A DNA stretch of 64,000 nucleotides, taken from positions 16,772-80,771 of the forward strand of contig CAVUPH010000027.1 of assembly GCA_963743305.1 (NCBI GenBank), given 5' to 3'. Source of the DNA: an uncultured delta proteobacterium (GTDB taxonomy: Bacteria; Desulfobacterota; RBG-13-43-22). Shown in pieces: positions 541-29,743 of the stretch (position 1 is its first letter; every line of letters begins with the position of its first letter). A program made the translations under genes and the position numbers. The notes under the pieces were generated by a model. It saw only the letters and a program-made list of their open reading frames with translations, did no database searches and was not told the origin of the DNA.

Positions 541-657
541 ATGCATCTGAACCCGATTGTTAAATCGCTGACCCTGTTCATCCTGGCCGGCCTTTGTGAA
601 ATAGGCGGAGGCTATCTTGTCTGGTTATGGCTGAGAAATGGAAATGGTAATGTCTAG
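541..657 (+). pseudogene. ynfA: N-terminal remnant of YnfA/UPF0060 small membrane protein
   Basis: Manual translation [38 protein letters not shown] matches the YnfA N-terminal signature ([21 protein letters not shown]). It stops after 38 aa, far short of the usual ~110 aa. Confidence 0.75.
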
Positions 658-3031: not shown

Positions 3032-4518
3032 CCTCTTTCTCTAAAGAGGGGGTCGGTTGCCAATCGGGGATTCACCGGTCGGAAACACCGATTTTTCAGG
3101 CACCCCCACCAAACACCCAACTGATAAGAAAGCTGATCCAGCGTGAAATACCAAAAAAAGGAAAAGAAATTCAGCCGTGGTTTCTTGATAAAATATTCCA
3201 CCCCAGCGGTCAAAAGGTGCAGGCCCAACAGGATCAGGGAAATCGCGGGCAGAAAAAAACCGAAAGGTAGCGCCAGCACGAGATAATACCGGGAGAAGAA
3301 AGCCGCCCAATGGTATAAGAGGGCAAGATAACCTCGGAGAGCGGCGGCCACGATAGTAAAAAAAGTCAGAGTAAGCTTTTGGCGGGCCAATTTAAAAAAC
3401 CGGATTCCGGAATCCAGCAATAAAACCAGGCCGCTGACGACCAATAGGGGTGGGTAAAGAAACCGGAGGGCCAAGAAAAGAAAAATCCAGAAGAAAAATC
3501 CGGCGGGGGGAAGAATCAATTGCTTGATACGGTGGCTATGCCGGCGCTGCAGCCAAGGTTCGGAGGTGCCGTACTCAAAGCGCCTGCGGCAAAAAGGGCT
3601 GAGTCTATTCCGATGACGGTGATATATCTTTCCCCGGGGCCGATACTCCATCTGGAACCCCTCATCCTGCAGCCTCCAGCACAAATCTACATCTTCACCC
3701 ACTTGCAGATCCTCCCGAAATCCCCTTAAGCTCAAAAAAACGTCCCGTTTGACCAGGAGGTTGCAGGAGGGCAGGTAAAAAAACCGATCCGCCTCTTGCG
3801 AACGTCTAAACCAGGCCCCGATAGATAATGAGGACTTGACCTCCTCATATCGGTCCAGTCCTTTTTCACCGGAAGAGGCCGCCACCATCCCGCCTATGGC
3901 CCCTAGGGCCGGATCTTTAAAGGCCGGGACCAAGTCCTTCAACCAGAGCGGATGGGCCTGACAATCGGAATCGATAAAGGCCAGGATTTCTCCTTTGGCC
4001 TTCCGGGCAGCCAGATTTCTGCAAAAAGAGGCTTGCTTAGGCTCTGTTAGTCGCCAGAGCGCGACGGGAAAGGTGGAAATCACCTCCGGGGTCGAATCAC
4101 TGGAGGAATCATCCACCACCAGAATTTCCATTTTCCCCGGAGGATAGTCCAGGTGAGCGAGCGAAGCAAGACAGTCCGCTATCTCTTCCGATCTATTTCT
4201 GACCGGGACGATGACGGAGACCAGGGGATAATCCGGGAGTAATAAAGTACCCTCCGGTTCCAGGAACCCTCTCCGCACCAAGTCGTCCAGGAAAAATATG
4301 AGTTTATCCGGATTGATCGAAGGAACCCGGGAACTTATATCTTCGGCGGAAACGAATTGGTCTCCGGATAAAGAATCCAGCACCGGGATCCAAAAAGGGT
4401 CCAGCCGCAGGACCTTCAAGGGGAAGGCCAGAACCAAAACGGGGATCCGGTTTCTCTGCGTATGGACCACCGATTCCCGCAGGCGATAGGCCAGGGGTTT
4501 TGTTATTGGGCCGACCAT
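3028..4518 (-). CDS. mftF: Mycofactocin biosynthesis glycosyltransferase MftF (GT2)
   Basis: GT2 motifs VSVIVPVRN, VVDDSS, FIDSD and GEDVDLCWRL. Also RRRFEYGTSE, an N-terminal extension and mft context. Confidence 0.9.
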   Translation of the reverse strand: MVGPITKPLAYRLRESVVHTQRNRIPVLVLAFPLKVLRLDPFWIPVLDSLSGDQFVSAEDISSRVPSINPDKLIFFLDDLVRRGFLEPEGTLLLPDYPLVSVIVPVRNRSEEIADCLASLAHLDYPPGKMEILVVDDSSSDSTPEVISTFPVALWRLTEPKQASFCRNLAARKAKGEILAFIDSDCQAHPLWLKDLVPAFKDPALGAIGGMVAASSGEKGLDRYEEVKSSLSIGAWFRRSQEADRFFYLPSCNLLVKRDVFLSLRGFREDLQVGEDVDLCWRLQDEGFQMEYRPRGKIYHRHRNRLSPFCRRRFEYGTSEPWLQRRHSHRIKQLILPPAGFFFWIFLFLALRFLYPPLLVVSGLVLLLDSGIRFFKLARQKLTLTFFTIVAAALRGYLALLYHWAAFFSRYYLVLALPFGFFLPAISLILLGLHLLTAGVEYFIKKPRLNFFSFFWYFTLDQLSYQLGVWWGCLKNRCFRPVNPRLATDPLFRERG

Positions 4519-5326: not shown

Positions 5327-6199
5327 TTATTCACCCCCGGATTTCTGCCGAGACCCCAGGAAACCATGGTTCTCTAAAAAGGAGAGGATCCCTTCCACCT
5401 GCGATTCAGGGCTTCCAGTCAGCACGAGCCCGTTTTTTTGGATGCTGGTGCCGGAAAGAAGCTGGTCGATCCTTTCATAAGCCGGCCGAGAGCAATCCGG
5501 TGCCGGGATTCTTTTGGGTCGCGGACGTGGAGGAAACACTTCGGCCATCACTGTTTGGGGTTTCGGGCTGGGATCATTATACGTTATTTGGTGAAAAGGG
5601 ATAGACCAGGCCTGCTTTTTGTTTGGATAGGTGGGCAGCGGGAGGGCTTGGCCACCCAGATCAACACTGAAGACCGCCGGTAGCGGGCAAAGGACAGTTT
5701 CCCGCACTCCCCGTCCCCCACTCCTTTGAACAGTCCCTGAATGGTGGTCTGAAGAAAACGTCAGTTGGGTAATGGCCGAGACAAAAGGCCTCTTCAGGTG
5801 ATAGGCCAGGTAGGCCCCCATGAGACCGTTTTGTTTGTCCAAAGACTCTTTTCCGCAGAGGACAACCCGGGCACCCAGATCCTTTATCGCCCGAGCTAAA
5901 TAGATGGATTTGGCCCAGGGATCCGCTTCACCTTCTCCAGCCAGAAGATAAAGCCGGTCGGCCCCCAAGGCCAGACAGCGTCGCAGTTCGGCTTCGGCGA
6001 TGAGGGGCCCCAAAGTCAATAAGGCGACCTCTCCTTCACCCAAAGAAGCCCTGGCCGATAAGGCTAATTCCAAGGCCGCCTCGTCGTAGGGATTGATTCG
6101 ATAAAGGGTATCTTCCGGTGCCAAAAAATGCTGTTCCGGATCGAGACCGCTTCGGCAGTAGGTGTGGGCTATTTGTTTGATACAAACGACGATCTTCAT
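5327..6199 (-). CDS. etfB: Electron transfer flavoprotein subunit beta
   Basis: MKIVVCIKQ, INPYDEAALE, LALGAD and CGKESLD motifs. Confidence 0.9.
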   Translation of the reverse strand: MKIVVCIKQIAHTYCRSGLDPEQHFLAPEDTLYRINPYDEAALELALSARASLGEGEVALLTLGPLIAEAELRRCLALGADRLYLLAGEGEADPWAKSIYLARAIKDLGARVVLCGKESLDKQNGLMGAYLAYHLKRPFVSAITQLTFSSDHHSGTVQRSGGRGVRETVLCPLPAVFSVDLGGQALPLPTYPNKKQAWSIPFHQITYNDPSPKPQTVMAEVFPPRPRPKRIPAPDCSRPAYERIDQLLSGTSIQKNGLVLTGSPESQVEGILSFLENHGFLGSRQKSGGE

Positions 6200-6202
6200 G
6201 GC

Positions 6203-8104
6203 CTAGTTCCTTTCCAGGGAAGCGGCCACGATTTCGATGACATCCCGGACCTGTGGGGGGGGGTTCTTTTCCTGAGAGAGAACCCCGTCTTCGAGCATGA
6301 CCAAACAATACGGACAAGCGGTCCCGACCAGTTCCACCCCGGATACCATGATCTCTTCGGCCCGAAGTTGATTAATGGGACGACCCCTGGTTTCATGAAG
6401 CCACATGTGCCCGCCTCCGCCTCCACAGCAAAAACCGTTTTCCCGGTTCCGGGGTAATTCCTGAACTTCAATATCCGGGACGGCCGAAAGGATTTCCCGA
6501 GGCGATTGATACTGTTGATTCGCCCGACCCAGATAGCAGGGATCATGAAAAACGGCCTTTTTCCTTAAAGGGTATTTTAATTTGATTCGCTGTCGGTCAA
6601 TCAGCTCTTTGACCAGTTCGCTGGCATGAAAAACCTGGAACTTTCCTCCTAAGGGGGGATACTCGTTTTTCAGCGTATTCAGGCAATGAGGGCAGAGGGT
6701 CACGATTTTTTTAACCGGGTAGTGATTCAAGCGCTGGATATTCTTTCTGGCCAGCTCTGCAAACAAGGCTTCCTCACCCAGCCTCCGGGCCGGATCCCCG
6801 CAACAAAACTCCTCTTTTTCTAAGAAACCGAACCGGACCTGCCCGACCTTCATAATCTCCACCAACGCCCTGGCCACCTTCTGGTAGCGCGGATGAAAGG
6901 ACCCGTAACAGCCCACCCAGAAAAGCACTTCAGGACTTAAGCCCCTGGCGGACATAGGGCTTAGACCCAGGTTGAAAGCCCATTCGGAACGGTAGGCCCT
7001 GCCTTTACCCTGAACATCCCCGAATAGTTCCAGATTGCGGATAGCCGGTCTGGCCTCCGGGGGGACCAGGCCTCTTCCCAGAACCTGATATCTTCTCAAA
7101 TCCATGATTTGCCGCAAGGGTTGGATGAAGATCGGGCACTGTTCGATACAGGCCAGGCAGGTGGTGCAGGACCAAATTTCTTCCTCACTGATGTCCTGGG
7201 CGAGCAGGGGTGGGCCGGATTGATCTTCCGCTCTTTTTCGGTGAACGGCTTGCTCCATCTGGCCCAGGATCTTCTGAATCACTTTTTGAGGAGAGAGGGG
7301 TTTTCCGGAAAGAAAGGCCGGGCAGTTCTGCTGACAACGGTTGCAGGCCACACAGGCCTCGGCATCCATCAACTGCTTCCAGGAAAAATCGTGGACCGTT
7401 TGAGCTCCCAGGTCCCCTTTTTCCAAGGAGAGTGGATAAAGTTGGCCTGGCCCTTGCCGGCTGTGAAAATAAACATTGAGAGGCGCCGCTGCTAAATGAC
7501 GCAAGGAAGTGAAAGGTATCAGGGCGATCAAGATCAGGACCGTCAGCAAATGGAAACGAATGACTACTTGCAAAAACCAGGGAGAGTCCGGCATTCCCAG
7601 AGATACCAGCCAACCCAAAGGAGAGGCCCAGAGGTCACCGCCGGGGACTATACGTAACCGCGTCCCTTCGGCCAGGAAGCCGGTGATGGCGATAATCAAC
7701 AGGAGCAGCAGCGGCAGGGCCGTCTGGAAGGATAGGGAATAATCCGGCTGATTCAAACGGCGAAAAAGGAACCAGAAGGTCCCGACCAGCAGGGCTATTC
7801 CCAAAAGGTCCAAAAAGAAAGAGAGTAGTTGAGCCACCGGCCCGGGAATTGAAAAATCAAATTGAGCCAGGAGAATGATTCCCAGCGGGATAACCACCCC
7901 CCAGAATAAAACCAGGTGGGCCGTCCCGGAACCTTTTTTTCTGACTATTCGCTTCTGGCCGACGAGGTAACCGATCAGACCTTTCCAATCCCCCGGACGA
8001 GTTTCAGCCCCCCCCTGCCTCCACAGGGATCTCCGCCGGATGAAGCCGAAAGCGCCAAGCAATAAGGCCAGGGTTACCAGGAAAAAATCAAAAACCGTCA
8101 GCAT
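6203..8104 (-). CDS. Membrane-bound Fe-S oxidoreductase (NarI-like cytochrome b + 2x[4Fe-4S] + 2 CCG domains; ETF:quinone oxidoreductase EMO/HdrF-like)
   Basis: N-terminal TM helices with His residues, CVACNRCQQNCP, CTTCLACIEQCP, FCCGDPARRLG, FCCGGGGG and TACPYC. Start reassigned to ATG 8104, just after the cytochrome stop. Confidence 0.88.
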   Translation of the reverse strand: MLTVFDFFLVTLALLLGAFGFIRRRSLWRQGGAETRPGDWKGLIGYLVGQKRIVRKKGSGTAHLVLFWGVVIPLGIILLAQFDFSIPGPVAQLLSFFLDLLGIALLVGTFWFLFRRLNQPDYSLSFQTALPLLLLLIIAITGFLAEGTRLRIVPGGDLWASPLGWLVSLGMPDSPWFLQVVIRFHLLTVLILIALIPFTSLRHLAAAPLNVYFHSRQGPGQLYPLSLEKGDLGAQTVHDFSWKQLMDAEACVACNRCQQNCPAFLSGKPLSPQKVIQKILGQMEQAVHRKRAEDQSGPPLLAQDISEEEIWSCTTCLACIEQCPIFIQPLRQIMDLRRYQVLGRGLVPPEARPAIRNLELFGDVQGKGRAYRSEWAFNLGLSPMSARGLSPEVLFWVGCYGSFHPRYQKVARALVEIMKVGQVRFGFLEKEEFCCGDPARRLGEEALFAELARKNIQRLNHYPVKKIVTLCPHCLNTLKNEYPPLGGKFQVFHASELVKELIDRQRIKLKYPLRKKAVFHDPCYLGRANQQYQSPREILSAVPDIEVQELPRNRENGFCCGGGGGHMWLHETRGRPINQLRAEEIMVSGVELVGTACPYCLVMLEDGVLSQEKNPPPQVRDVIEIVAASLERN

Positions 8105-8881: not shown

Positions 8882-9913
8882 TTATTTCGGTTCCTTCATT
8901 TTGTGCAGCTTCTCAATCAAAATAGGCAATAATTTATGAACATCCCCCACCACCCCCAAGTCGGCCAATCGAAAAATGCGGGCCTGGGGATCGGTGTTGA
9001 TCGCCAAAACCAATTTGGACTTTTCCATGCCCACGGTGAATTCGTTAGCCCCGGAAATGCCGCAGGCCACCAGTAACCGGGGGGAAACCGTCTTCCCGGT
9101 CTGGCCGATTTGCCGTTCAAATGTCAGGGTCTTTGAATCTATGACGGGGCGCGTGCCGCCCACCGTCCCCCCCAGGACCCCGGCCAGTTCATGGACGACG
9201 GAAAAAGAACCTTCCCGACCGACTCCCCGTCCTCCACAGACGATGAGATCCGCCTCCTCCAGGTCCAGGACTTCAGGAGGGGCTTCGAATCGTTCCAACA
9301 GCCGGGTGCCCTGCCTTTCCGACTGGTCCTGGAGAAAAATTTCCGTGATTTCCGGGTTGGCAGGAACGGGGATTTTTTCCGAGGTTAGCACCGAGGGCAG
9401 AAAGGTCAGGATATGGGGTGTCTGATCGGCAAAATAGACTCTTTCAAAAAGATGCCCGTTCGCCACCGCTCGAACGGCCCAAGCCTTTCCCCGGCCATCC
9501 ACCTGGGCATCCAGGGCCCGGGTGATTAAACCGGTTTCCAGAAGAGCGGCCAACCGGGGGGCCCAATCGCCCGTCTCCGCGGTTTGGGCCAGCAGGAAAA
9601 AAGAGGGTTGCCGCGTTCTGATCAAATCAGCCAATAACCAAGCGGTCCTTTCTCCTGGAACCTCAGGGCGATGATCCTCCCGACACCAAAGCACCCGCTG
9701 CACCCCGAAATGCCCTAACCCTTTCAGCTCCTCCTCGGCAACCGGGCCCAAGACTACGGCGGTCACCGTTGCTGTTTCTCCCCGGGAAGGAAGGAGCCGC
9801 CGGGCTTCACCGGCCAATCCCTTGGTTAGTTCTTCAACAGCGCCGGCCCTGGTATGTACCCAAATCCAGATATCCTCTGATTTGGAACGGATTTTCCCGA
9901 ACTCCAAACTCAT
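8882..9913 (-). CDS. etfA: Electron transfer flavoprotein subunit alpha
   Basis: GGRGVG, GGTRP, RQIGQTGKTVSP, CGISGA and AINTDP motifs. Start MSLEFG overlaps the upstream OYE stop. Confidence 0.9.
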   Translation of the reverse strand: MSLEFGKIRSKSEDIWIWVHTRAGAVEELTKGLAGEARRLLPSRGETATVTAVVLGPVAEEELKGLGHFGVQRVLWCREDHRPEVPGERTAWLLADLIRTRQPSFFLLAQTAETGDWAPRLAALLETGLITRALDAQVDGRGKAWAVRAVANGHLFERVYFADQTPHILTFLPSVLTSEKIPVPANPEITEIFLQDQSERQGTRLLERFEAPPEVLDLEEADLIVCGGRGVGREGSFSVVHELAGVLGGTVGGTRPVIDSKTLTFERQIGQTGKTVSPRLLVACGISGANEFTVGMEKSKLVLAINTDPQARIFRLADLGVVGDVHKLLPILIEKLHKMKEPK

Positions 9914-11868
9914 AGGCGCCTTCCCACCCGATGACCTTCCAGGATGGCCGTATCGGTTTTCCGAGGAGCCAGACAATCGCCGATCCGGTACAGCTCCTGG
10001 ACTTTTCCTTTAAGGGCAAAATAAAGCGCGTCGCAAGACCGGTTCCCGGCCACCAGGACAATCGTGTCCTGGTCTTCAAAATCGATCAATTGATTGGAAT
10101 AGACGTTCAAGCCTTTGACCAATTTTCCTTGAATCTCCAGAACGGCTATGTCGGGAGTAAAGGTGACCCCCTTTTGGGCCAATCGCTTTCGGGTCAGATA
10201 GAGGTCTTGCAAAGGCCCCAGTTGGCTGCCGATAAACAAGGCCGGGGTGAGGATATGAACAACCCTGCCCCGGTCGGCCAGATATTCGGCCGTGCCCGTA
10301 CCTTGATGATGCCCTTCCAAATCAATCAGCAGCACCCGGGGGCCGGCCACCACCAGCCCGGTCAGAACTTGGGGGGCAGTAACCACATCCGGAAAGGAGT
10401 AATCCCCCGGAAAGGGATGCTCTTTGGGAAGCGAGCCGCTGGCCACCACGACCGCATCCGGTTTTTCGGCTAAGACCAAGGCTTCCGTTGCCTCCATCCC
10501 CAACCTAAGATCAATATCCAGTTGGCTGATCTGTCCGACCAGCCAGCGGGTTACTCCGGTGATTTCTTGTCTTCCGGCCGCCTGGCCGGCAATCAGATTC
10601 TGCCCCCCCACTTCCGGATTTTTTTCCAGGAGAATGACCTCGTGTTTTCTGAGGGCCGCTACGCGGGCGGCCTCCAGACCGGCCGGCCCGCCCCCAATCA
10701 CCAGCACTTTTTTAGGTCTTTCAGCGGGCCGGAGGGTCCCCGCGCCCCAGACCTTCTCCCGGCCCACGGCCGGGTTTTGAACACACCCCAATAAATAACC
10801 CAACCCCATCCGGCCGATGCATCCCTGATTGCAGGCAATGCATTGGCGAACATCTTCCACTCTTCCTTCCCGGGCTTTATTCGGCAATTCCGGATCGCAG
10901 ATCAAGGCCCGGACCATCCCGATCATATCCGCTCGACCGTCGGCCAGAATTTTTTCAGCCAGATGAGGGTCATTAATGCGGTTGGTGCAAAAAACCGGCA
11001 GGGTAATGACCGAGCGGATGCCGGCGGCCAGAGGAACCGTGTAGGCCAGCGGGGTGTGCATGGAACCTTCCACCAGGAAGAGATGATGGAAGGTCCCCAG
11101 ACTGAGGTCCATGAAATCCAGTTGATCCGTGGCCTCCAACTGCTGGGCGATGATTTTGGCGTCTTCCAAGGTCAAGCCGCCCCGCGGGTGCATTTCATCG
11201 GCATTTAATCGTACGCCCAGGGTGAAGTCGGGCCCTATGGCCTGACGAACGGATTGAATGACCTCCAGACAAAATCGCAGCCGATTCTCAGAAGTCCCGC
11301 CATAGTCATCCTGACGAAAGTTGGTGGCCGGCGATAAAAACTGTCGGATAAGGGAACTGTGGCCGATCTGAAGCTCTATCCCGTCGAACCCCCCTTCGAC
11401 GGCATGGACCGCGCTTCGGGCAAAAAATTCCAGGCATTCCCGAATGTCCTCGATTTCCATTTCCTTGGCCGTCTCCCGGAAAAGGGGATCCTTACCGGCC
11501 GAGGGGCCCCAGACCGGTAACCGGGAATTCTTCCCATCCCCCTGCATTCCATTGTGGTTCAATTGGGCGAATATCTTGGTTTCGGTTTGGTGGATGGTCT
11601 TAGTCAGTTCCTGGAAACCGGGTATGACCTCCGGTTTATAGGCGTCTACGAGTTTGGCATAAGGATAATCGGTGGGGTGCACCGATAATTCTTCGGTGGT
11701 TATCAACCCACAACCCCCTTGGGCCCTCTCTCGATAATAATGGATATGCCGCTCGCTGATCCGGTTGTTTTCCCCGAAATTAGTCAAGTGGGCGGCAAAA
11801 TGGATCCGGTTGGACACTACAATGCGGCCGATCTTCAAGGGGGCGAATAAATAGGGAAAGCCGCTCAT
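9910..11868 (-). CDS. Mycofactocin system FadH/OYE family flavin oxidoreductase
   Basis: OYE TIM barrel, CIACNQGC...C [4Fe-4S] motif, VIGGGPAG FAD motif and mft context. Confidence 0.88.
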   Translation of the reverse strand: MSGFPYLFAPLKIGRIVVSNRIHFAAHLTNFGENNRISERHIHYYRERAQGGCGLITTEELSVHPTDYPYAKLVDAYKPEVIPGFQELTKTIHQTETKIFAQLNHNGMQGDGKNSRLPVWGPSAGKDPLFRETAKEMEIEDIRECLEFFARSAVHAVEGGFDGIELQIGHSSLIRQFLSPATNFRQDDYGGTSENRLRFCLEVIQSVRQAIGPDFTLGVRLNADEMHPRGGLTLEDAKIIAQQLEATDQLDFMDLSLGTFHHLFLVEGSMHTPLAYTVPLAAGIRSVITLPVFCTNRINDPHLAEKILADGRADMIGMVRALICDPELPNKAREGRVEDVRQCIACNQGCIGRMGLGYLLGCVQNPAVGREKVWGAGTLRPAERPKKVLVIGGGPAGLEAARVAALRKHEVILLEKNPEVGGQNLIAGQAAGRQEITGVTRWLVGQISQLDIDLRLGMEATEALVLAEKPDAVVVASGSLPKEHPFPGDYSFPDVVTAPQVLTGLVVAGPRVLLIDLEGHHQGTGTAEYLADRGRVVHILTPALFIGSQLGPLQDLYLTRKRLAQKGVTFTPDIAVLEIQGKLVKGLNVYSNQLIDFEDQDTIVLVAGNRSCDALYFALKGKVQELYRIGDCLAPRKTDTAILEGHRVGRRL

Positions 11869-13853
11869 AGCCCCTGTCCCACCTTCCGGCCTTCATAAAT
11901 GGCGGTATCAATACCCCTCGGGCTTTGGCAATCTCCCACGCGATGGAGTTCCTTCACCCGACCTTTCAGCTCTCTATACAGCCAGTCGTTGGCGATATTC
12001 CCCATGTCCAGAACAACAGTCCCGTATCCTTCCCAGCCTTTAGGTTGGTTGGTATAAATATCCCGGCCCCTGACCGTAGTTCCTTGAATCTCATCGATGA
12101 GAACCTCGGTGGTAAAGGTGACCCCTTTTTGGAGCAAACGCTGTCGGGTCAGATAAAGATCCCCCAGCGGGGCCAGCTCGATGCCCACAAAAAGGTCGCT
12201 GGTGATCATATCCACTTGTTTCCCTTGATCGGCCAGCAGTTCCACCGTGGCCGTAGCGTGATGCCCGCTGTTTTCATCAACAAAAAGGACCCGATCTCCG
12301 ATAGGATACCGACCCTCCAGGACCTCCCAGACCGTGAGAACCTCCGGAGGACCGTATTGACCGGGGACCGGTTTAGCGTTCGGGAATGAACCGGTGGCCA
12401 CAATCACGACATCGGGATTTTCTTCCAGGACCCGTTCCGGGCTTATGGTCTGGTCGGTGAGCAGAGGCACGCCCAGGGCTTCCAACTGATGCTGGAGATA
12501 CAAAATGACCCCGGCCATTCCCTGCCGAGTAGGTCTTTTTCGGATCAAATTGAGTTGGCCGCCCACGACTTTGTTTTTTTCATAGACCACTACCCGGTGG
12601 CCCCGGGAAGCGGCTGCCCGGGCGGCCTCCAATCCGGCCGGCCCGGCCCCGATGACCATGACCCGTCTGGCGATTTTAGAATGCGGCTGGGGGCTGGCAG
12701 CGTATTGGGTCGGATTATCGCCGAACGCCGAACGCTGAACGCCGAAGGCTTCGTAGCCCACTTCCGGATTCTGAATGCACCCCAGGGTCTTGGCCTGATT
12801 AATCCGTCCCAGACAGCCTTTGTTGTCCCGAACGCAATAACGAACTTTTTTCAGGTCTCCCGCGCGGATCTTTCTCGGGAAATCAGGGTCGCAAATCAAT
12901 TGGCGAACATAGCCTACCAGATCGGCTTTCCCCAGAGCAACGGTCTCTTCGGCCATTTGCGGGGTATTGATTTGATAGCTGGCCATTATGGGAAGAGGAA
13001 CGGCGGCTTTTATCTTTTCGGCCAATTCCACGGTGTATCCGGGAGGAGTATGCATCGAAGCCAGGATCAGATGCAGGTTGTAATAGGTCCCCAAAGTCAC
13101 ATTGACAAAATCGATCCCGCCGGTTTGACCGAGGTGACGGGCCATCTCCTGGGCCTCTTCCACGCCAATCCCGCCCCAGAATTTTTCATCGGCACATAAC
13201 CGGATTCCCACCGTGAAATCGTTCCCCACGACTTTCCGAATACCCTCCAGGACCTGGAGGGGCAGACGGAGACGGTTCTCCAGGCTGCCCCCGTATTCGT
13301 CTTGACGCTGGTTCGTCAGGGGAGAGAGAAACTGCCGCAACAGGGATTCCGGTCCCAGGTCTATCTCGATCCCGTCCAACCCGCCTGCCCGTACAAATCC
13401 GGCCGCCCGGGAAAAGGATTCCACCAGTTCCTCAAAATCCTCCGCCTCCATGGCTTTGGCCGTTTCCCCAAAGACGATATCCGCCAAGGCCGACGGCCCC
13501 CAGACGGGCATTCGGTTGATGGCCCCGCTGCTTTGAAACCCATGGTGGGTCAGTTGGGCAAATAGGGATGTGCCGGTTTCATGGATGACTTCGGTTAATT
13601 TCCGGTAATCAGGGACGATCGAGGGAACGGAGGCTTCGATCATGGTCTCCCAGGGGCGGTCATTGGCCTGGATGGCGAGTTCCCCCAGAATGATCAGCCC
13701 GCAGCCCCCGACAGCCCGCTGTTGGTAATAGGCCCGATGGCGGTCATTGAAACGGCCGTCCCGGGAAAAATTGGTACGGTGCGCCAGAAAGCAAATACGG
13801 TTGGGCAAGGTGGACTGACCCAAAACCAGCGGTGTGAAGAGATGATCAAACAT
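11865..13853 (-). CDS. Mycofactocin system FadH/OYE family flavin oxidoreductase (atypical paralog)
   Basis: Same architecture as the neighbouring paralog, with VIGAGPAG and a variant cluster motif CVRDNKGC...C. Lies directly after mftC. Confidence 0.85.
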   Translation of the reverse strand: MFDHLFTPLVLGQSTLPNRICFLAHRTNFSRDGRFNDRHRAYYQQRAVGGCGLIILGELAIQANDRPWETMIEASVPSIVPDYRKLTEVIHETGTSLFAQLTHHGFQSSGAINRMPVWGPSALADIVFGETAKAMEAEDFEELVESFSRAAGFVRAGGLDGIEIDLGPESLLRQFLSPLTNQRQDEYGGSLENRLRLPLQVLEGIRKVVGNDFTVGIRLCADEKFWGGIGVEEAQEMARHLGQTGGIDFVNVTLGTYYNLHLILASMHTPPGYTVELAEKIKAAVPLPIMASYQINTPQMAEETVALGKADLVGYVRQLICDPDFPRKIRAGDLKKVRYCVRDNKGCLGRINQAKTLGCIQNPEVGYEAFGVQRSAFGDNPTQYAASPQPHSKIARRVMVIGAGPAGLEAARAAASRGHRVVVYEKNKVVGGQLNLIRKRPTRQGMAGVILYLQHQLEALGVPLLTDQTISPERVLEENPDVVIVATGSFPNAKPVPGQYGPPEVLTVWEVLEGRYPIGDRVLFVDENSGHHATATVELLADQGKQVDMITSDLFVGIELAPLGDLYLTRQRLLQKGVTFTTEVLIDEIQGTTVRGRDIYTNQPKGWEGYGTVVLDMGNIANDWLYRELKGRVKELHRVGDCQSPRGIDTAIYEGRKVGQGL

Positions 13854-13865
13854 GTGGGCGTGGTA

Positions 13866-14867
13866 TTAGGCCGCTGATCTTAAATTCACCAGGCATTCCG
13901 GGTCAGGCAAGGAAATATCGCGATAGGTATGGTAGGCCATGGCCGGGCACCCGCCGCGGCAGGTCTCAAAGCGGCGGCAGGTATGGCAGGAGGAAATATC
14001 AAGAGTCCGGAACCGGCGAAAAATCGCCGCCTGATCCCAAATCTCTTTAAATGAGTGACGGCGCACATTGCCGGCCTGAAAGTCCTTTTCCTGCAAGAAG
14101 GCGCAGGGATAGACCTCCCCGCTGGGAGACAGGCAACAGGTCATCTTGGCGGCGCCGCACATGTCCAATCCCTTGCGACGCCGATTCTCCGAGGTGAGGC
14201 AGAAGAAAGAATCCCCGGTACGTACTTGATCGTGGCCATTCAGCCATTCCGCAAAGGCTTCCAACTGGTCCGGACTGGGATTGAGGAGTGTTTTGCTGTC
14301 TTTACCCCTCCCCGAGGGACGGAAACGCGACACCCGAAACCCCGCTCGGTATTCCCCGGCCAATTCCCGCAAGGAGTCCAATTGGGAATAATTCAGCCTG
14401 GTCAGGACCGTATTGATACTATAGGAAATATTCTGCCTGGAGAGGCAGTCCAAGGCGGACAGGATCTTTCGATACGTCCCTTGACCGCGGATCCGGTCAT
14501 TCACCTCCTCGGTGACGCCGTCCAGGCTGACCTGGAGATAGAGCTGTTTAAAGGCCTTTAAGCGTCGGGCTAGTTCGTCATCCATGAGCAACCCGTTGGT
14601 ACTCACACAGGCCACTATTCCCTTTTCCTGTAACCCAGTCAAAAGTTCCAGAAAATCTTTTCGAAGAAAGGGTTCCCCGCCGCCGATATTAACCTGAAAG
14701 ACCTTCAGACCGGCCCATTGCCGGATCAGGTCTTGACACTCTCCGAAGGAAAGCTCCTCCGGTGAGGCCTCCCCGGCAGCGGAGAGGCAATGAGCACAGC
14801 GGAGATTGCATCGCCAGGTAATTTCCCAGGTCACGTTGACCGGGGCGCGAAGACCGGTGCGAGCCAT
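13866..14867 (-). CDS. mftC: Mycofactocin radical SAM maturase MftC
   Basis: LRAPVNVTWEITWRCNLRCAHC, VNIGGGEP, TGDSFF, GLDMCGAAKMTC and CRGGCPA...PDPEC. Confidence 0.93.
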   Translation of the reverse strand: MARTGLRAPVNVTWEITWRCNLRCAHCLSAAGEASPEELSFGECQDLIRQWAGLKVFQVNIGGGEPFLRKDFLELLTGLQEKGIVACVSTNGLLMDDELARRLKAFKQLYLQVSLDGVTEEVNDRIRGQGTYRKILSALDCLSRQNISYSINTVLTRLNYSQLDSLRELAGEYRAGFRVSRFRPSGRGKDSKTLLNPSPDQLEAFAEWLNGHDQVRTGDSFFCLTSENRRRKGLDMCGAAKMTCCLSPSGEVYPCAFLQEKDFQAGNVRRHSFKEIWDQAAIFRRFRTLDISSCHTCRRFETCRGGCPAMAYHTYRDISLPDPECLVNLRSAA

Positions 14868-14868
14868 T

Positions 14869-15147
14869 TCAGCAGGCAAGAATGATCCCCTTCCCCTGCA
14901 AAGTGTTCAGTGTCTTTTTCAACGCCGAGTACCGATCCTCGGACCAGGGACCGGAAAGGGGCCCCCGCTGCCGCCATTCTTCCAGGGTGTGACGTCCTTG
15001 GAAAAAATCCGCCTTCAGGAAATCACCGGAGGAAACAAAATAAAGCCCCGGACCTTGCTGGGTATAGAAGAGCAATCCAAAGTCTTCCTCCCGTACCTGG
15101 CACCCTGGAGCCAGGGTATACCGGGGTCCTTGATCTATTGAGGTCAT
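14869..15147 (-). CDS. mftB: Mycofactocin biosynthesis chaperone MftB (RRE/PqqD-like)
   Basis: YTLAPGCQVREEDFGLLFY...L...L..KGII pattern, 92 aa, directly upstream of mftC. Confidence 0.88.
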   Translation of the reverse strand: MTSIDQGPRYTLAPGCQVREEDFGLLFYTQQGPGLYFVSSGDFLKADFFQGRHTLEEWRQRGPLSGPWSEDRYSALKKTLNTLQGKGIILAC

Positions 15148-15155
15148 AGTCCTTT

Positions 15156-15197
15156 TTAATATATCCCGCGGGTCCCGTCAATACGGATCTCTTCCAT
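15156..15197 (-). CDS. Short MftA-like peptide MEEIRIDGTRGIY (variant or remnant precursor)
   Basis: Manual translation. GGAG lies 7 nt upstream of the ATG. Aligns with the MftA C-terminus EE.xIDGxCGVY. Ends 8 nt before mftB. Confidence 0.6.
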   Translation of the reverse strand: MEEIRIDGTRGIY

Positions 15198-15233
15198 TTT
15201 GTTTCTCCGGCATAGTTACCGATCTCCGTTGCA

Positions 15234-16397
15234 CTAACAATTCCGGGAGCCATTGATCTCGCTCATGGCTTCCAGCGCCCAATCGATTTCATCTCCGGTA
15301 TTAAAAGGTCCGAGGCTGAAACGGACGCCGCCCCGGGGAAAGGTGCCTATAGCCTCGTGAACCAAGGGAGCACAATGGAGCCCGGCCCTTACGGCGATGC
15401 CGAAGTCGGCATCCAGGATCGCCCCGGTGTCCCCCGGATCCATTCCCCGCACATTGAGGGTGATGAGCCCCACATGGTTGCGCAGATCTTCCGCACAATA
15501 AAGTTCGACCCTGTCCAGGGAAGACAGGCCGTCACGGAAGCGGGTGACCAGTTCCATCTCCCTGCGGTGTATGGCTTCGATACCCTGTTCCTCCAGGAAG
15601 TCTAGGCCCGCGGAAAGACCGAGGATACCGATCAGGTTAAGGGTCCCGGCCTCCAGACGATGGGGATAGGTCTGGGTGTGGATGGGACTCTCCGAATCAA
15701 TGCCGGTTCCCCCAAAGCGTGTGGTCCGCAGGTCCAGGTCCGGGTGAATAATCAGGCCGCCGATGCCTGTGGGCCCCAGTAAAGACTTATGGCCGGTGAA
15801 GGCTACGGCGCCGATTTTCCAGGCCTCCAGATCAATGGGGACCACGCCGGCGCTCTGGGTGGCATCCACCAGCAAGGGCACCTCTTTCCGGGCACAGAGG
15901 GCACCGATTTCGGCTAGAGGCTGGATCGTTCCCAGCACGTTGGAGGCATGGCAGACGATCACCAGCCGGGTATTGGGCCTGATGGCCTGGGCGATATCGT
16001 CAGGGTCAACAAAGCCCTTTCCATCGAAGGGCACCAGATCGTATTCGATCAGGCCCTGTTCGTGAAGGTGGTACAGGGGCCGAAGGACCGAGTTGTGTTC
16101 AATCCGAGTGGAGACCACGTGATCCCCCGGCCGAATCAAGCCCTGAATGGCCAGATTCAGGGCGTCCGTGGCGTTCCCCGCGAATATGACCCGATGGGGA
16201 TCGGGTGCGCCGAAGAAGCGAGCGAGCTTTCTCCTCGCGGCCTCGACCAGATCCTCCGCCTCAATCGCCAGGTCATAGCTCCCCCGCCCGGGAGAGACCC
16301 CGGTCCGCTGGTACGCTTCGACCATGCTGGCCAGCACACCCGGTGGTTTGGGGAAGGTGGTGGCTGCGTTGTCCAGGTAGATAAACCGTTTGGTCAT
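15234..16397 (-). CDS. Cysteine desulfurase family protein (PLP class V)
   Basis: YLDNAATT, EHNSV, TGHKSL (PLP Lys) and RAGLHCAP (catalytic Cys). Confidence 0.9.
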   Translation of the reverse strand: MTKRFIYLDNAATTFPKPPGVLASMVEAYQRTGVSPGRGSYDLAIEAEDLVEAARRKLARFFGAPDPHRVIFAGNATDALNLAIQGLIRPGDHVVSTRIEHNSVLRPLYHLHEQGLIEYDLVPFDGKGFVDPDDIAQAIRPNTRLVIVCHASNVLGTIQPLAEIGALCARKEVPLLVDATQSAGVVPIDLEAWKIGAVAFTGHKSLLGPTGIGGLIIHPDLDLRTTRFGGTGIDSESPIHTQTYPHRLEAGTLNLIGILGLSAGLDFLEEQGIEAIHRREMELVTRFRDGLSSLDRVELYCAEDLRNHVGLITLNVRGMDPGDTGAILDADFGIAVRAGLHCAPLVHEAIGTFPRGGVRFSLGPFNTGDEIDWALEAMSEINGSRNC

Positions 16398-16402
16398 ACT
16401 CC

Positions 16403-16768
16403 CTACCCCGAACAGGTCTTCGGATTCGGCAAGCCGGCCACACGGCGGGCGCCCCGACGGATACCCTCCGGGAAGAGGGCCTCCATCTGCATGAAGGTCA
16501 AGCCGATCTCGGCTTTTATGTCACGGTTCATGGGCGCCCGGCCGTTGTGGAAGTAGAAATTCCTCAAAAAATGGATGATCCGCCATTGGGTCTCGTTCAT
16601 TTCTTCAAGCCCGGTTTCCGCGGCGAGGATTCCGGCCAGCTCAACGGTCCAGTCTTCCGGTTTCCACAGGAATCCCTCGTTGTCAAAGAGGATCTCCCTC
16701 CCCGCGATCAAGCGAACCTTCCGGTTGGGCTGGCCGGAAAGGGGCTTGGACCCTGCAGATCCGTCCAT
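16403..16768 (-). CDS. TusE/DsrC-family sulfur relay protein (single C-terminal Cys)
   Basis: DNEGFL...W, LRNFY, LFP.G and AGLPNPKTCSG. Lacks the second Cys of true DsrC. Confidence 0.85.
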   Translation of the reverse strand: MDGSAGSKPLSGQPNRKVRLIAGREILFDNEGFLWKPEDWTVELAGILAAETGLEEMNETQWRIIHFLRNFYFHNGRAPMNRDIKAEIGLTFMQMEALFPEGIRRGARRVAGLPNPKTCSG

Positions 16769-16777
16769 GGGCCTCCG

Positions 16778-19433
16778 TTATCCTTTAGCCAGCGCGGCCT
16801 TGATCTTCTCCGGCGTTGCCGGCAGGTTGCAGATCCTGACGCCGCAGGCATCCTTGATGGCGTTGATGACCGCCGGGGCCGTTGAAACCATGGTCATCTC
16901 ACCGATACCGGTGGCTCCCAGGGTTCCTTTGGTTCGAGGCGTCTTCGAGGGGTGTAATCACCTCCATGTCAAAGGCGGTCTTCATGGTGGGAAATTTAAA
17001 GGTGACCCAGTCTTTGGTTTTGCCGCTTACATATTCCTCCCTGAGGGCGTATCCCACGCCTTGATCCATTCCACCCTCAAGCTGGCCTTCCAGGTTCTGA
17101 GGATGGATCACCGGTCCCGGATCAACCGCTGTGGTCATTTTGATCACCCGGACATCACCGGTCTCGGTGTTGACCTCTACCTCCGCCATCTGAATATTAT
17201 GGACTTGGGACTCAAAGGTCGGCCCCTGACCGGTTTGCGGATCGAGCTGACCTTCAGGGACATTCTTCTTCCCCATGTAGCGGGTGGGTTTTCCAGCTTT
17301 TTTCAGCCCTTCATAGGTCGCCTCACCGGCCGTGGCCAGGTTTTCTTTCAACTGTTCCAGGGCATTGACCAGGGCCCCTCCGACCATATAGGTGATCCGG
17401 CTGCCGGCAGCAGGACCGGTTTCAGTAGTCTGATCGGTATTGCGGGTCACCAAACGGACCTTCTCCAACGGAAGATTCAGTAAATGAGCGGTGATCTGGG
17501 TCAGCATGGAATCGTTTCCTTCACCAGGATCGGCCGCGGCGGCGTAGAGGGTAACCCCATTATCCGGATCAAGTTCCACCGCCAACTGGGCCGCGTCTCC
17601 TGGTGAGGCGATGCCGAAGGAATGGGCGCCCAGGCCGACGCCCCGTTTGATCGGGCCATCCTTGAAAGCAGCCGCCTCTTTCCTGGCCCGCTCGTAATGG
17701 GGCCGGATGAGTTCGCAGAGCTCCTTGAAAGTCCACTGCTCCGCGACGGTACCGGTGGACACGCTCTGACCGGGCAGAAGAGCGTTTCTTAAACGGAATT
17801 CCAGGGGATCGATTCCCAATTTTTCCGCCAGCATGTCCATGGCCGATTCCAGGGCAAAATTGACCTGCGGCGGCCCGGCCCCGCGGGCGGCGCCTCCCGC
17901 CGGGTTATTGGTGTAAACCAGCTTGGCCATAGTGTCAATATGGGGGATATGATAGGAGCCGGAGAGCATTTGCAGGGCACGAACAATGACGACGATGCCC
18001 AAAATCATGTAGGCGCCGTTCTCCACGACGAAATCATTGGCGTAGGCGGTCAACTTCCCGTCCCGATCAGCCGCCAGTTTGACCTTCATGATAAAGGGAT
18101 GCCGTTTGGAAGTCAGCAGCATGGATTCATGCAGGCTGGGGATATAGCGAACAGGTCTCTTGAAATGGAGGGCCGCGGCCCCGGTAATGCCTTCGGAGGT
18201 AATGGCGGCCTTGATCCCGAACTGCCCCCCGGTGTAGGCCTCTTCATAGCGCATGTTTTCCCATCCCAGGGCACCTTGCAGCATGGCCATATGGGTGTGG
18301 ATCATGATGCTTCGTCCGATCACCACGAGCAAGGCCTCCTCTCCTTCTCCTTCCAGATAGGCGACACAGGCCTCCGGCTCCAGGGGAGCCTGATGATTGA
18401 GCTGCGTGGAAAACTCCGCCTCCACCACGGCGGCGGATCCCGCAAAGGCCGTTTTAGCATCTCCCTTAATCTGGGGTTGTTGATAGCAGAGGTTGGGGAA
18501 TTCGGCATGCAGCGGTACGGCGTTTTCTGCCAGGGCCTCCTGCGGAGTCATCATCACCGGCAGGGGCTCGTACGCTACTTTTACGGCGGCCGCCGCTGCC
18601 CGGGCCTGGTCCAAGGTCTCGGCCGCCACTACGGCAATGGGATCCCCCAGGCAGCGGACCTTCTCATCGCAGAGCACGGGCTGGTCATTGAAGATGAATT
18701 GGATTCGGTTGGTCCCCTTGATGTCTTTGGCGGTCATGGTGCCGATGACGCCGGGCATCTTTTCCGCCTCTCCGGTATCGATGGAAATGATTTTCGCGTG
18801 ATGCTCCGTGCTGCGGACGACCGCTATCTCCGCGGCGCCCTGAATTTTTATATCGGCCGAGAATTCGGCCAGCCCGCAGGCCTTGATCATGGCCGAGGGT
18901 CGCGGATGGGAGACATGCAGCTTCGGTCCCTTGGGGTCCGGCCTGACCTGGTCGGGCGAGGTCTCGCCGCGAATGAACCGGCCGGCCAGCTTCACGGCGT
19001 CCAGGATCTTCGCATAGCCGGTGCAACGGCACAAATTCCGGGCCAAGGCCTTTTTGATCTCTTCCGAATCCGGGTCCGGATTCCGGTCCAGAAGGACCTT
19101 GGCCGCCATAATCATACCCGGTGTACAGAATCCGCATTGTATGGCGCCTGAAAGAACAAAGGCCTCTTGGATCAGATGGGGATTATCCGGAGTACCCAAG
19201 CCCTCCACGGTAATCACCTCGGCGCCTTCCAGGTCAGCCACCTTGGTGAGACAGGATCGCGTCGCTTTATTGTTGACGATGACCGTACAGGCCCCGCATT
19301 GCCCCAGGCGGTCGCAGGACTGCTTCGCCCCGGTAAGGTGCAGGTCGTCACGCAGGAGATCCATAAGGACCCTGTCCGGTTCGACCACAAACTGATACCT
19401 TCGTCCGTTTACTTTTAATGAGATTTTTTTCAT
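16778..19433 (-). CDS. mop: Molybdopterin aldehyde oxidoreductase (MOP-like, xanthine oxidase family); frameshift near 16945
   Basis: N-terminal 2x[2Fe-2S] motifs (CDRLGQCGAC, QCGFCTPG, CRCTGY) and Moco domains (GGQFG). The C-terminus TPRTKGTLGATGIGEMTMVSTAPAVINAI...LPATPEKIKAALAKG* is in another frame, ending at 16778. Confidence 0.88.
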
Positions 19434-19512: not shown

Positions 19513-20652
19513 TTACCATTCACAGACCCAGCGACCGATGATTTGCCTTTTTCGCATCGCTTCGGCCACCTCGTTAATCTCTTCCACCTTAAACTTTTTA
19601 GTTAATAATTTTTCCACGTTATACTCCCCTCGCATAATCATGTCGGCGAAGGCGGGGATGTCCTCATGGGTCCGGATATTGCCGTATAGAGTCCCTTGCA
19701 GGGTTTTGCAGTGGACGGGGAAAAAAGTCAGGACCATCTCGGCCGATTGATCCGCCGGATGAATGCCGATCTGAACCCACTTGCCCCCCATGGCCAAGGC
19801 CCAGTAGGCCTGGCTAATGGCGCCGGTATTCCCGCTGACCTCGAAGAGGATGTCCACCCCGCCGCCCATGATCATCCCGTTATCCATCTTTACCCCGCCG
19901 GTTTGTAATTGGATGATCGGGACCGGATCTTCCCGGCTGCTGTTAATAAAATGGGTCACCCCGAAGGCTTTGGCTATTTCCTCTTTACTGCCTTCCAGGT
20001 CCACCCCGAAAATGGGATAAGCACCCCGGAGCTTGGCGCCCTGAACCACATTAAGCCCGACACCGCCCAACCCCCAGACGGCCACGGATTGTCCCGGTTT
20101 CACCTGGGCCACATTATAGGCGGCCCCAAATCCGGTGGGCATGCAACAGGCCAGCGAACAGGCCTGCTCCAACGGCAGGTCGTCTCTGATTTTAATGGCC
20201 CCGGCCTCCACCAGGACCATGTATTCGGCGAAACCGGAAACAAAATTATTGTGCAATAATTGGTTTCCCTGGGCATCCTTCAACCGGGAGGTTCCATCCA
20301 GGAGCGTGCCTTGCGTATGGATGCCATGACTTGTCCGGCAGATATGTCCCTGACCGCTGGTGCACTCCGGGCAGTGCCCGCAGGCCACCATCCAGGTGGC
20401 GACCACGTGATCCCCTTTTTGGAGTGAAGTGACCCCCGGTCCGACGGCCTCGACAATACCGGCGGCCTCGTGCCCGACCACCATAGGCAGCGGGAAGGGG
20501 ACGTCGCCTTCCATGAAAGACAGGTCCGAATGGCAGAAACCGGTATAAGCGGTTTTGACCAAGACCTCCTGTTCCTTGGGCGGGGCCAATTCAACTTCTT
20601 CAATAGTCAATGGTTTTTTATACTCTCTTAGCACTGCCGCTTTCATTTTCAT
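19513..20652 (-). CDS. Zn-dependent alcohol dehydrogenase (MDR)
   Basis: CHSD, GHE, structural Zn motif CGHCPEC...C and GLGGVG. Confidence 0.92.
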   Translation of the reverse strand: MKMKAAVLREYKKPLTIEEVELAPPKEQEVLVKTAYTGFCHSDLSFMEGDVPFPLPMVVGHEAAGIVEAVGPGVTSLQKGDHVVATWMVACGHCPECTSGQGHICRTSHGIHTQGTLLDGTSRLKDAQGNQLLHNNFVSGFAEYMVLVEAGAIKIRDDLPLEQACSLACCMPTGFGAAYNVAQVKPGQSVAVWGLGGVGLNVVQGAKLRGAYPIFGVDLEGSKEEIAKAFGVTHFINSSREDPVPIIQLQTGGVKMDNGMIMGGGVDILFEVSGNTGAISQAYWALAMGGKWVQIGIHPADQSAEMVLTFFPVHCKTLQGTLYGNIRTHEDIPAFADMIMRGEYNVEKLLTKKFKVEEINEVAEAMRKRQIIGRWVCEW

Positions 20653-25795: not shown

Positions 25796-27038
25796 CTACT
25801 TCTTTGCCGGTGCCGGTGCAGGCCAATTCGGCTTGGGATAGATGAACGGCGCCGTAGATTTGTTTTTAGGACCGACTACCTCAAATTCTCCTTTCTGCCA
25901 CTGGCCGATCTCCCCGGTGTGGGACTCCTTGTCCAGAAACCCCTTCACAAAGCGGGTCGGCCCGAGCACCGTGTTGAAGGTCTCCTTGGCCAAGACGTCC
26001 CGGACCTTCTTGTTGTCGAGGGTCCCGGCCTTCTCGATGGCCTGTTTCCAGAACTCCAGGGCCGCCCAATAGAGCGGGTGCCCCCAATAGTCGTGGATCG
26101 CTTCAGGCTTGCCTTTGTAGAGCTTCTCGAACAGGGCCTTCATGGCGGGAGATGTTTTCTTGCTCGCCATGTCAAAACCCAGTACCCCCTCTGTCGCCGG
26201 ACCGAATATGGCGTGGTAAAAGCCGAAATTGACTCCGGGGCCGCCCAGAAAGGCCTTCGGGTTGTAGCCGAGTTCCATGCATTGCTTGGTAGCCAGAATG
26301 ACCACGTCCGGATAACCCAGGACCAACAGGGCGTCGGCCTTGGACGCCTGGGCCTCCTTCAGGATGGAAGACAGGTCCTTGATGTCGGGGGGTACGCTCT
26401 TCATCCCGACGATATTGATCCCCCTCTTGGGCAGTTCTATGCTCGACACGCCGGAATACTCGATGCCGAAGAGGTCGGCCATGGAGATGAGGTAGGCCGT
26501 TTTGGCGCCCTTTTCGGCGAGCAGGTCGGCCAGGACCGGTATCTGGTTCCAGTCGGAGAAACTCAGGGAGATGAAGGTATAGGGCAGGCTGGGCATCATA
26601 TCCCGAATGCTGGTGGCGCCGCCTTCCATCGATATAAGCAGCTTATTGTACTTATTGGCTATGGGAGCTTGGGCAAAGAGAAAAGGCGGTGCCGCAGGCG
26701 GGCCACAGGAAGTCGACCTTGTCCTGGAGGATCAATTTCTCCGTAAGTCTGGTCATGGTGCCCACGTCACTCTTATCGTCGTATATTTTCAGTTCTATGG
26801 GCAGTTTCTTGTTGTACTCTTTGACGAAGATTCCACCCTGGGCATTGACTTCCTTAACCCAGGTCTCATAGACCGGTCTGAAAGCCGAGTCTCCGATCTG
26901 GGCCATCCATCCGGAAAGCGGTCTGGACATGCCGACCACGATCTTGTCTTTTGTTTTCGCTGCTGAAAAGGCGGTAAGGGGCAATACGACAAATGAAATC
27001 AGCACCGCTAAGCAAACCACATACTTTAGATTTTTCAT
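25796..27038 (-). CDS. ABC transporter substrate-binding protein (LivK family); +1 homopolymer frameshift near 26683
   Basis: Signal peptide MKNLKYVV.... Removing one T from TTTT gives CGTAFLFAQAPIANKYNKLLISMEGG and joins the two ORFs. Confidence 0.85.
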
Positions 27039-27219
27039 CTTCCCTCCCTCGATTGCTTCTTTTGAAAGATTTTCCCATGATTCCTGGTCCAAAGGCAAGA
27101 CGCCTCCTCCCCATAACTACCTATCCTTGAGAATGCCGGTACACCCCCCCTTCCGTTAAATTGGTTTATATTCCTTGGTCTAAGGATGCTCCCCGCCAAC
27201 ATCCCGGGATAAAATGGTG

Positions 27220-29620: not shown

Positions 29621-29743
29621 TTAATAAACACCACAAATTCCGTCGATGGCCAATTCTTCGATTTTGATCTCTTCGATAGCAAAAATTTCCTCGTTGATTT
29701 CCTTATTGGTTTCCTCGTTGATTTCTTTTTCTGGTTGGATCAT
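29621..29743 (-). CDS. mftA: Mycofactocin precursor peptide MftA (40 aa)
   Basis: Manual translation MIQPEKEINEETNKEINEEIFAIEEIKIEELAIDGICGVY*, with an acidic leader, the IDGxCGVY terminus and an upstream AGGAGG RBS. Absent from the ORF track. Confidence 0.93.
   Translation of the reverse strand: MIQPEKEINEETNKEINEEIFAIEEIKIEELAIDGICGVY

Follow-up and report, generated by a model that had tools for sequence, protein, structure and literature searches.

The window, i.e. the whole stretch of 64,000 nucleotides that was analysed here, derives from an uncultured delta proteobacterium and contains genes of the mycofactocin system. The maturation genes mftB and mftC lie next to each other, the start of mftC overlapping the end of mftB, and are directly preceded by a small open reading frame (ORF), whose end resembles that of the precursor peptide MftA. 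The following features of the system were assigned:

3028–4518, minus strand: mftF, glycosyltransferase of the same system (TIGR03965, 364 bits, cut-off 280)
13866–14879, minus strand: mftC, radical SAM/SPASM maturase of 337 amino acids (TIGR03962, 357.9 bits, cut-off 265)
14869–15147, minus strand: mftB, 92 amino acids (TIGR03967, 42 bits, cut-off 33; junction profile, E 4.7e-22)
15156–15197, minus strand: small ORF, MEEIRIDGTRGIY plus TAA by translation, open part of a putative mftA relic
15205–15208, minus strand: GGAG, Shine-Dalgarno-like, 7 nt (AAACAAA) upstream of the ATG of the small ORF
15156–15212, minus strand: counterpart of the last 18–19 codons (3′ end) of mftA, supported by DNA profiles (nhmmer envelope to 15232)
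29621–29743, minus strand: intact canonical mftA, 40 amino acids, ending in EELAIDGICGVY (TIGR03969, 32 bits, cut-off 25)

No intact mftA other than the one at 29743–29621 was found in the genome; it is located about 14.4 kb upstream of the small ORF in the same orientation. Neither MftD nor MftE was found above the NCBIfam cut-offs in this genome (G000, 90% complete); the best creatininase-family match reaches 111.6 bits against a cut-off of 172 and lies on another contig. mftC is followed by two tandem mycofactocin-type FadH/OYE genes (9910–13853, minus strand), one of which scores 875.5 bits against TIGR03997 and is thus above the cut-off, while the other one scores 746.5 bits and is below the cut-off of 793; the ortholog of the second gene in the related genome G011 is split into two ORFs. 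Elsewhere in the window, two adjacent ORFs of the same frame (638–1849, plus strand) both match the model of the multiheme cytochrome (seleno)protein ExtKL (NF040886), and the in-frame TGA between them (1526–1528) is probably a selenocysteine codon.

The small ORF starts with an ATG at 15197–15195 on the minus strand and ends with a TAA at 15158–15156, thereby comprising 13 codons. From stop to stop, its frame reads LCRRNKMEEIRIDGTRGIY, closed upstream by the TAA at 15218–15216. It is located in an 86-nt gap between the stop codon of a cysteine desulfurase gene (TAG 15234) and the ATG of mftB (15147), from which its own stop codon is separated by the 8-nt spacer AAAGGACT. An earlier note on this DNA had described a second MftA-like peptide with a GGAG of its own directly upstream of mftB, and this description was borne out with the minus strand and the 7-nt and 8-nt spacings given above; the word second is correct, since an intact mftA is present. 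The note had further stated that the peptide keeps EE.xIDG..G.Y and carries Arg in place of the conserved Cys and Ile in place of Val. Both Glu residues, Ile-Asp-Gly, Gly and the terminal Tyr are found in the small ORF, and reading of the codons confirmed the two replacements, which are encoded by CGC (Arg) and ATA (Ile). Its suggestion of a frameshifted longer peptide starting at ATG 15213 is not supported in this form, as this ATG belongs to the frame of mftB and its reading ends at TGA 15178. Upstream of the small ORF, it is the third frame (..EIGNYAGE) that is ancestral, and it joins the small ORF only via a 1-nt deletion.

The only ribosome-binding candidate of mftB itself is an AGGA located 2 nt upstream of its ATG. 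The GGAG of the small ORF (15208–15205) coincides with Glu codons of intact mftA genes. A search of 14700–15700 for sigma-70-type promoters and intrinsic terminators yielded none, and no promoter-like or terminator-like site lies between the desulfurase gene and mftB. The predicted RNA fold of 15260–15100 is unremarkable (z 0.44), and a search of 14500–15800 against Rfam gave a single match, which is at chance level and lies outside the small ORF.

Several comparisons link the small ORF to mftA. In the whole window, only two frames end in G[VILA]Y followed by a stop codon, namely the small ORF and the canonical mftA gene. When a DNA profile was built from 49 mftA genes of other genomes, its best match in the window was the canonical gene (E 1.2e-22) and its second best 15211–15157 (E 7.8e-4), where profile positions 73–128 of 129 are aligned. 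A second profile, built from seven close mftA genes including 70 nt of downstream sequence, gave an unbroken alignment from 15201 to 15087, which runs through the spacer into mftB (E 5.5e-9). Both alignments establish homology between the small ORF and the 3′ end of mftA; this homology is supported up to position 15212 and is uncertain beyond it. The position fits as well: the distance between the stop codon of the small ORF and the start of mftC is 277 nt, compared to 274–275 nt between mftA and mftC in three loci of other genomes (L044, L064 and L053), and the distance of 8 nt between the stop codon and the ATG of mftB equals that in locus L004. The significance of the match rests on this exact position before mftB, because the match alone is weak in a genome-wide search: nhmmer lists it with an E-value of 0.06, and a protein profile of 49 sequences gives it 8.7 bits and an E-value of 27, a score exceeded by one of 200,300 frame tails. 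In a direct comparison with the closest mftA copy, 35 of 60 nucleotides are identical, and up to 33 are reached by chance in the window; a local DNA alignment with the region of the intact copy within the window scored 21, which is not significant compared to 18.4 ± 2.4 for shuffled sequences; only the profiles brought the relationship out. Judged by sequence and position together, the small ORF is real and more than a chance resemblance.

Since the genome is available as a draft assembly in 43 contigs, and since the gene of an ABC substrate-binding protein located between the small ORF and the intact mftA is also frameshifted near a T run, it could be argued that the true sequence encodes a canonical mftA or lacks the frameshift. 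However, a public soil metagenome run (X1), assembled with a different assembler, provides a 319-nt contig that agrees with 15055–15373 without a single difference or gap. The depth of this contig is low (2.9) and it may come from the source sample of the genome, so that an assembler artefact is excluded, but no independent biology is added; contigs of three further runs (X2–X4) do not cover the small ORF, and no RNA run is among the public runs listed. In addition, conversion of the small ORF to a CGVY-type peptide requires at least nine base changes within 39 nt, which is not a single error, and the deletion at about 15202 is not located in a homopolymer run. A sequencing or assembly error is therefore an exceedingly improbable explanation.

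For the comparison with intact precursors, 59 intact MftA sequences were used, which had been gathered with the pattern DG[IV]CG[VI]Y, so that the counts of invariance given below are to be read with this pattern in mind; a looser C-terminal pattern, applied upstream of mftC in 58 loci, found no further variant. The small ORF ends in IDGTRGIY, with I, D, G, G and Y retained. At position −4, counted from the C-terminus, it carries Arg, which occurs in none of the 59 sequences, all of which have Cys. Two further residues are likewise found in 0 of 59, namely Thr at position −5, where intact MftA has Ile or Val, and Arg at position −9, which is occupied by Ala in 49, Ser in nine and Thr in one of the sequences. 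Met at position −13 is found once and Ile at position −2 four times among the 59; since Ile is natural in some intact MftA, this replacement alone is not a sign of decay. Further upstream in the frame, the residues at positions −15, −16 and −18 are again seen in none of the 59 sequences and position −20 is a stop. The ATG of the small ORF takes the place of an ATC, ATT, GTC or GTG codon of the intact genes, among which only the one at locus L123 has an ATG there. The leader is absent, and of the roughly 23 residues that are conserved at the C-terminus of MftA, 13 remain in frame. The profile alignment requires a 1-nt deletion at about 15202 (between 15202 and 15201; GAAA-C versus GAaaTc), and therefore the upstream remnant (..EIGNYAGE) is found in a different frame; in a pairwise alignment with the closest relative, a 4-nt gap falls at the same site and shifts the frame identically.

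The substitutions also differ from those between intact genes. Among themselves, intact copies differ at 3–11 of the last 39 coding nucleotides, mostly at third and never at second codon positions; up to four first-position differences occur between two cluster types. The small ORF differs from intact copies at 11–16 of these 39 nucleotides, 5–7 of which are first and second positions, and its extra substitutions are spread over all three codon positions, a pattern that points to relaxed constraint. Seven of the 13 residues are kept, which is somewhat above the expectation for random substitution (P 0.01–0.26, depending on the reference), part of this retention being due to changes on the intact lineages that are synonymous. 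In random-substitution trials, the 13-codon frame stays open in about 60–70% of the cases. Neither the retained residues nor the open frame is strong evidence against relaxed constraint.

According to Haft 2011 (PMC3023750), the last four residues of MftA, Cys-Gly-Val-Tyr, do not vary, and the peptides resemble one another only in the last 23 residues; the motif IDGxCGVY, which covers the eight C-terminal residues of MftA, seven of them invariant, is given in the same paper and in PMC5264612. In a whole-genome search with the MftA model TIGR03969 (cut-off 25 bits), the small ORF was not listed, while the intact copy scored 32 bits and one spurious site 11.5 bits. Like MftA, the small ORF is located beside mftB and mftC with identical place and spacing, and together with the upstream remnant it is homologous in DNA to the last 18–19 codons of MftA. 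In contrast to MftA, which comprises 35–51 residues in this analysis and 34–78 residues as reported in PMC3023750, it has only 13 residues and no leader, carries Arg for Cys, Thr for Ile or Val and Arg for Ala, Ser or Thr, and is preceded by a frameshift. The score, the C-terminal invariants and the region of about 23 residues thus set it apart from the family, whereas the features by which a pseudogene is recognized are found together: homology, truncation, a 1-nt deletion, replacements at invariant sites and an intact copy elsewhere.

An MftC match at E ≤ 1e-40 was found in 11 of 61 related genomes, none of which is among the three genomes of the same genus. A scan of one genome per species revealed 71 mft loci, the closest MftC being 80% identical. 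Of these loci, 58 were examined; left out were L080, where the contig ends within the MftC match, and L103–L114, whose MftC matches are partial or only 25–35% identical. In 50 of the 58 loci, the 1200 nt upstream of mftC encode a full-length MftA ending in DG[IV]CGVY, and mftA is usually located directly 5′ of mftB. In L047, mftB is disrupted and an mftA of the DG[IV]CGVY type is found about 1.4 kb upstream; no mftA lies within 700 nt of mftB in L048, L051 and L081, and for four loci the upstream sequence is too short to judge the presence of mftA. The distance between the stop codon of mftA and mftC is 350–540 nt in many relatives, from which the mftA-mftB spacer was judged to be 60–250 nt long. 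The check for conservation in relatives that the earlier note had called for found the small peptide in no relative: none of the 58 loci has a short MftA variant, the sequence is absent from all genomes compared, and a metagenome scan with MftB yielded two distant loci only. A foreign replacement of mftBC was also considered and rejected, as the divergence of MftB and that of MftC are about the same in every pair of relatives.

Gene order in related genomes provides further information. In G004, the order is AOR-ThiS-AhpD-mftA-mftB-mftC, and in G011 AOR-mftA-mftB-mftC. In the genome studied here, AOR-ThiS-(ADH)-AhpD-mftA is found at 33.5–29.6 kb, and 14.4 kb of other genes lie between this mftA and the small ORF, which precedes mftB. 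The part of this stretch that adjoins the small ORF contains the following features:

19513–20652, minus strand: zinc alcohol dehydrogenase (ADH), whose 91%-identical ortholog in G013 directly precedes an intact mftA and an mftB stub
15234–19433, minus strand: three-gene cassette between ADH and the small ORF (family matches and comparison with relatives)
16899–19433, minus strand: Mo-dependent aldehyde oxidoreductase-like gene of the cassette
16403–16768, minus strand: DsrC/TusE-like gene of the cassette
15234–16397, minus strand: cysteine desulfurase family gene of the cassette

Orthologs of part of the 14.4 kb are present in G013, namely of a sigma-54 regulator (69% identical), an ABC transporter (80–91%) and the ADH (91%). 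In G013, the ABC transporter and ADH genes are directly followed by an intact mftA, about 17 codons of mftB (..GPRYTLAPGCQ) and then unrelated sequence, and this region of mftA plus mftB stub aligns with the small ORF and the 5′ end of mftB in the present genome. The stop codon of the ADH gene and the next ~16 nt align with G013 as well, after which the present genome diverges into the aldehyde oxidoreductase gene. For the cysteine desulfurase of the cassette, identity in 60 relatives does not exceed 48%, so that a close ortholog is missing there, and base composition marks neither the 14.4-kb block nor the cassette. The earlier note had proposed a decayed original mftA left behind by an insertion of the block at 15.2–29.6 kb. 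A decayed mftA left by an insertion is the reading with the best support, and the stretch does separate mftA from mftB in comparison with G004 and G011, but the comparison with G013 suggests that the 5′ end was lost to the smaller cassette at 15.2–19.4 kb. No mftB stub was found after the intact mftA at 29743–29621, so that there is no support for an mftA-mftB segment having been duplicated by a Campbell-type event. Within the block, the gene of the ABC substrate-binding protein (25796–27098, minus strand) is split into two frames near 26682–26701, beside a T run, while its ortholog in G013 is a single protein of 413 amino acids (89–90% identical); the split gene is either a pseudogene or reflects an indel error. 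An apparent second frameshift near 23.9 kb turned out to be an ordinary gene overlap.

The arrangement in G013 (locus L120, mftA end 6323) represents a rearrangement of the same kind at the same junction in the same family, and is a mirror image of the one described here: G013 retains a complete mftA but only about 17 codons of mftB, whereas in the present genome it is mftB that is complete and mftA that is truncated and decayed. The orphan mftA of L120 (about 6198–6400, G013:C62) ends in EELAIDGICGVY and follows the ADH gene, and a two-component system lies beyond the mftB stub. The only MftC match found in G013 (E ≤ 1e-40) is of the type associated with CGIY-ending precursors described below, and one set of maturases may thus serve both CGIY and CGVY precursors.

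In our judgement, the small ORF is very probably the surviving 3′ end of an mftA copy, that is, a pseudogene relic at its ancestral place before mftB-mftC. It would belong to an ordinary category, the pseudogene fragment beside an intact paralog, and seems to derive from the CGVY type, as its flanks match this type and the MftC of the present genome is 66–80% identical to the MftC proteins of CGVY-type clusters. The order of events that we infer starts with an ancestral mftA copy between ADH and mftB, as mftA precedes mftB in relatives. A rearrangement would then have set the three-gene cassette on the 5′ side of mftA, thereby removing the leader. Because an intact mftA stayed 14.4 kb upstream, the remnant would have been free to drift; it may then have suffered the deletion that shifts its frame, with Val being replaced by Ile and the conserved Cys, Ile and Ala by other residues. 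An Ile or Val codon would have become ATG and former Glu codons happen to read GGAG, the outcome being a translatable frame of 13 codons. The relic most likely yields no mycofactocin-type product, and the working precursor for MftB and MftC would be the intact MftA of 40 residues.

A point against this reading is that the frame is open, possesses a start codon and a well-spaced GGAG, and could thus be translated. If it is, the most plausible residual effect would be the delivery of ribosomes to the start of mftB 8 nt downstream. Selection might even keep the relic as an upstream ORF, with termination at TAA 15156 and reinitiation at the ATG of mftB, the peptide itself being without a role. Such a function is compatible with an origin as a relic and differs from the preferred reading only in what the sequence does at present. 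The distance of 8 nt, which is shared with L004, the AGGA of mftB only 2 nt before its ATG, the GGAG at 7 nt together with an ATG that arose from an Ile or Val codon, and the stretch between the desulfurase gene and mftB, which is free of promoter-like and terminator-like sites, would all suit coupling, and in L044 the ATG of mftB likewise lies a few nucleotides past the mftA stop codon with no visible Shine-Dalgarno motif. However, the long spacers of 60–250 nt in many relatives indicate that coupling of mftA and mftB is not a general need, the open frame is the expected outcome in most random-substitution trials, the GGAG is a by-product of Glu codons, and the local RNA fold is unremarkable. 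We therefore regard a selected coupling function as unlikely.

The headline of the earlier note was that the 13-mer is a second, minimal precursor, which would give a one-carbon-larger mycofactocin if processed. After decarboxylation, MftB and MftC would have to link the C-beta of Ile to the C-alpha of Tyr, giving a core with an ethyl and a methyl group. Ile, too, has a tertiary C-beta. The cross-link of mycofactocin is formed by MftC, which joins the penultimate residue through its C-beta to the C-alpha of Tyr (PMC10114670, PMC11350588). An Ile-Tyr end giving a mycofactocin homolog is chemically plausible, and full-length MftA peptides with such an end exist elsewhere: a full-length MftA ending in ..AVDGICGIY is encoded directly before mftB and mftC in four other genomes, three of which (G007, G011 and G013) belong to the family of the present genome, while G377 belongs to another one:

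L008, 2880–3032 (G013:C3): CGIY-type mftA
L009, 1049–1201 (G007:C3): CGIY-type mftA
L014, 3000–3173 (G011:C208): CGIY-type mftA
L123, 1330–1524 (G377:C211): CGIY-type mftA

In a scan for the CGIY pattern, three of 401 genomes of a phylum sample were positive and the reversed control pattern gave no match; the MftC proteins of CGIY-type clusters are 55–58% identical to that of the present genome, and our literature search found no paper containing both 'mycofactocin' and 'CGIY'. These clusters, which are a second mft cluster type in G007, G011 and G013, suggest that some MftC enzymes probably accept substrates with an Ile-Tyr end, and they share the Ile-Tyr C-terminus with the relic. Unlike the relic, however, their precursors are of full length with a complete leader, keep the core ..EE[LM]AVDGICGIY including Cys, and adjoin an intact mftB. 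What could speak for the 13-mer as a precursor besides these clusters is its location directly before mftB and the retention of the ..IDG..G.Y end, a ribosome-binding site and an ATG. Against this, the conserved region of 23 residues is reduced to 13, the residues at positions −4, −5 and −9 occur in none of the 59 intact MftA sequences, which without exception have Cys at −4, TIGR03969 does not detect the peptide, and no relative possesses one like it. MftC activity requires MftB (PMC11350588), and the part of MftA that is likely bound by MftB would be largely missing. The literature search found no paper on truncations of MftA or on determinants of MftB binding, so the length of MftA required by MftB and MftC is itself deduced. 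With the leader missing, three residues without precedent and no recognition by the family model, the precursor role suggested in the note is very unlikely. Equally unlikely is the idea that the translated 13-mer enters the MftB/MftC site, be it that it serves as a leaderless minimal substrate and gives an Ile-derived, one-carbon-larger mycofactocin core, or that it modulates the maturation of the intact MftA as a decoy; if it were true, the 13-mer would be the shortest natural MftA-type peptide and the conserved Cys would be dispensable.

For the relic reading, which we prefer, the practical consequence is a note of caution: an MftA-like end of a short ORF is not proof of a precursor, and the sequence before mftB should be annotated as a remnant. 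The right place to seek a one-carbon-larger mycofactocin is the set of CGIY peptides in complete clusters, which are real candidates. Taken together, the loci of the present genome and of G013 illustrate that the mycofactocin loci of these sulfate-reducer-like bacteria are reshuffled, with precursor genes being separated from their maturases, duplicated, orphaned or truncated.
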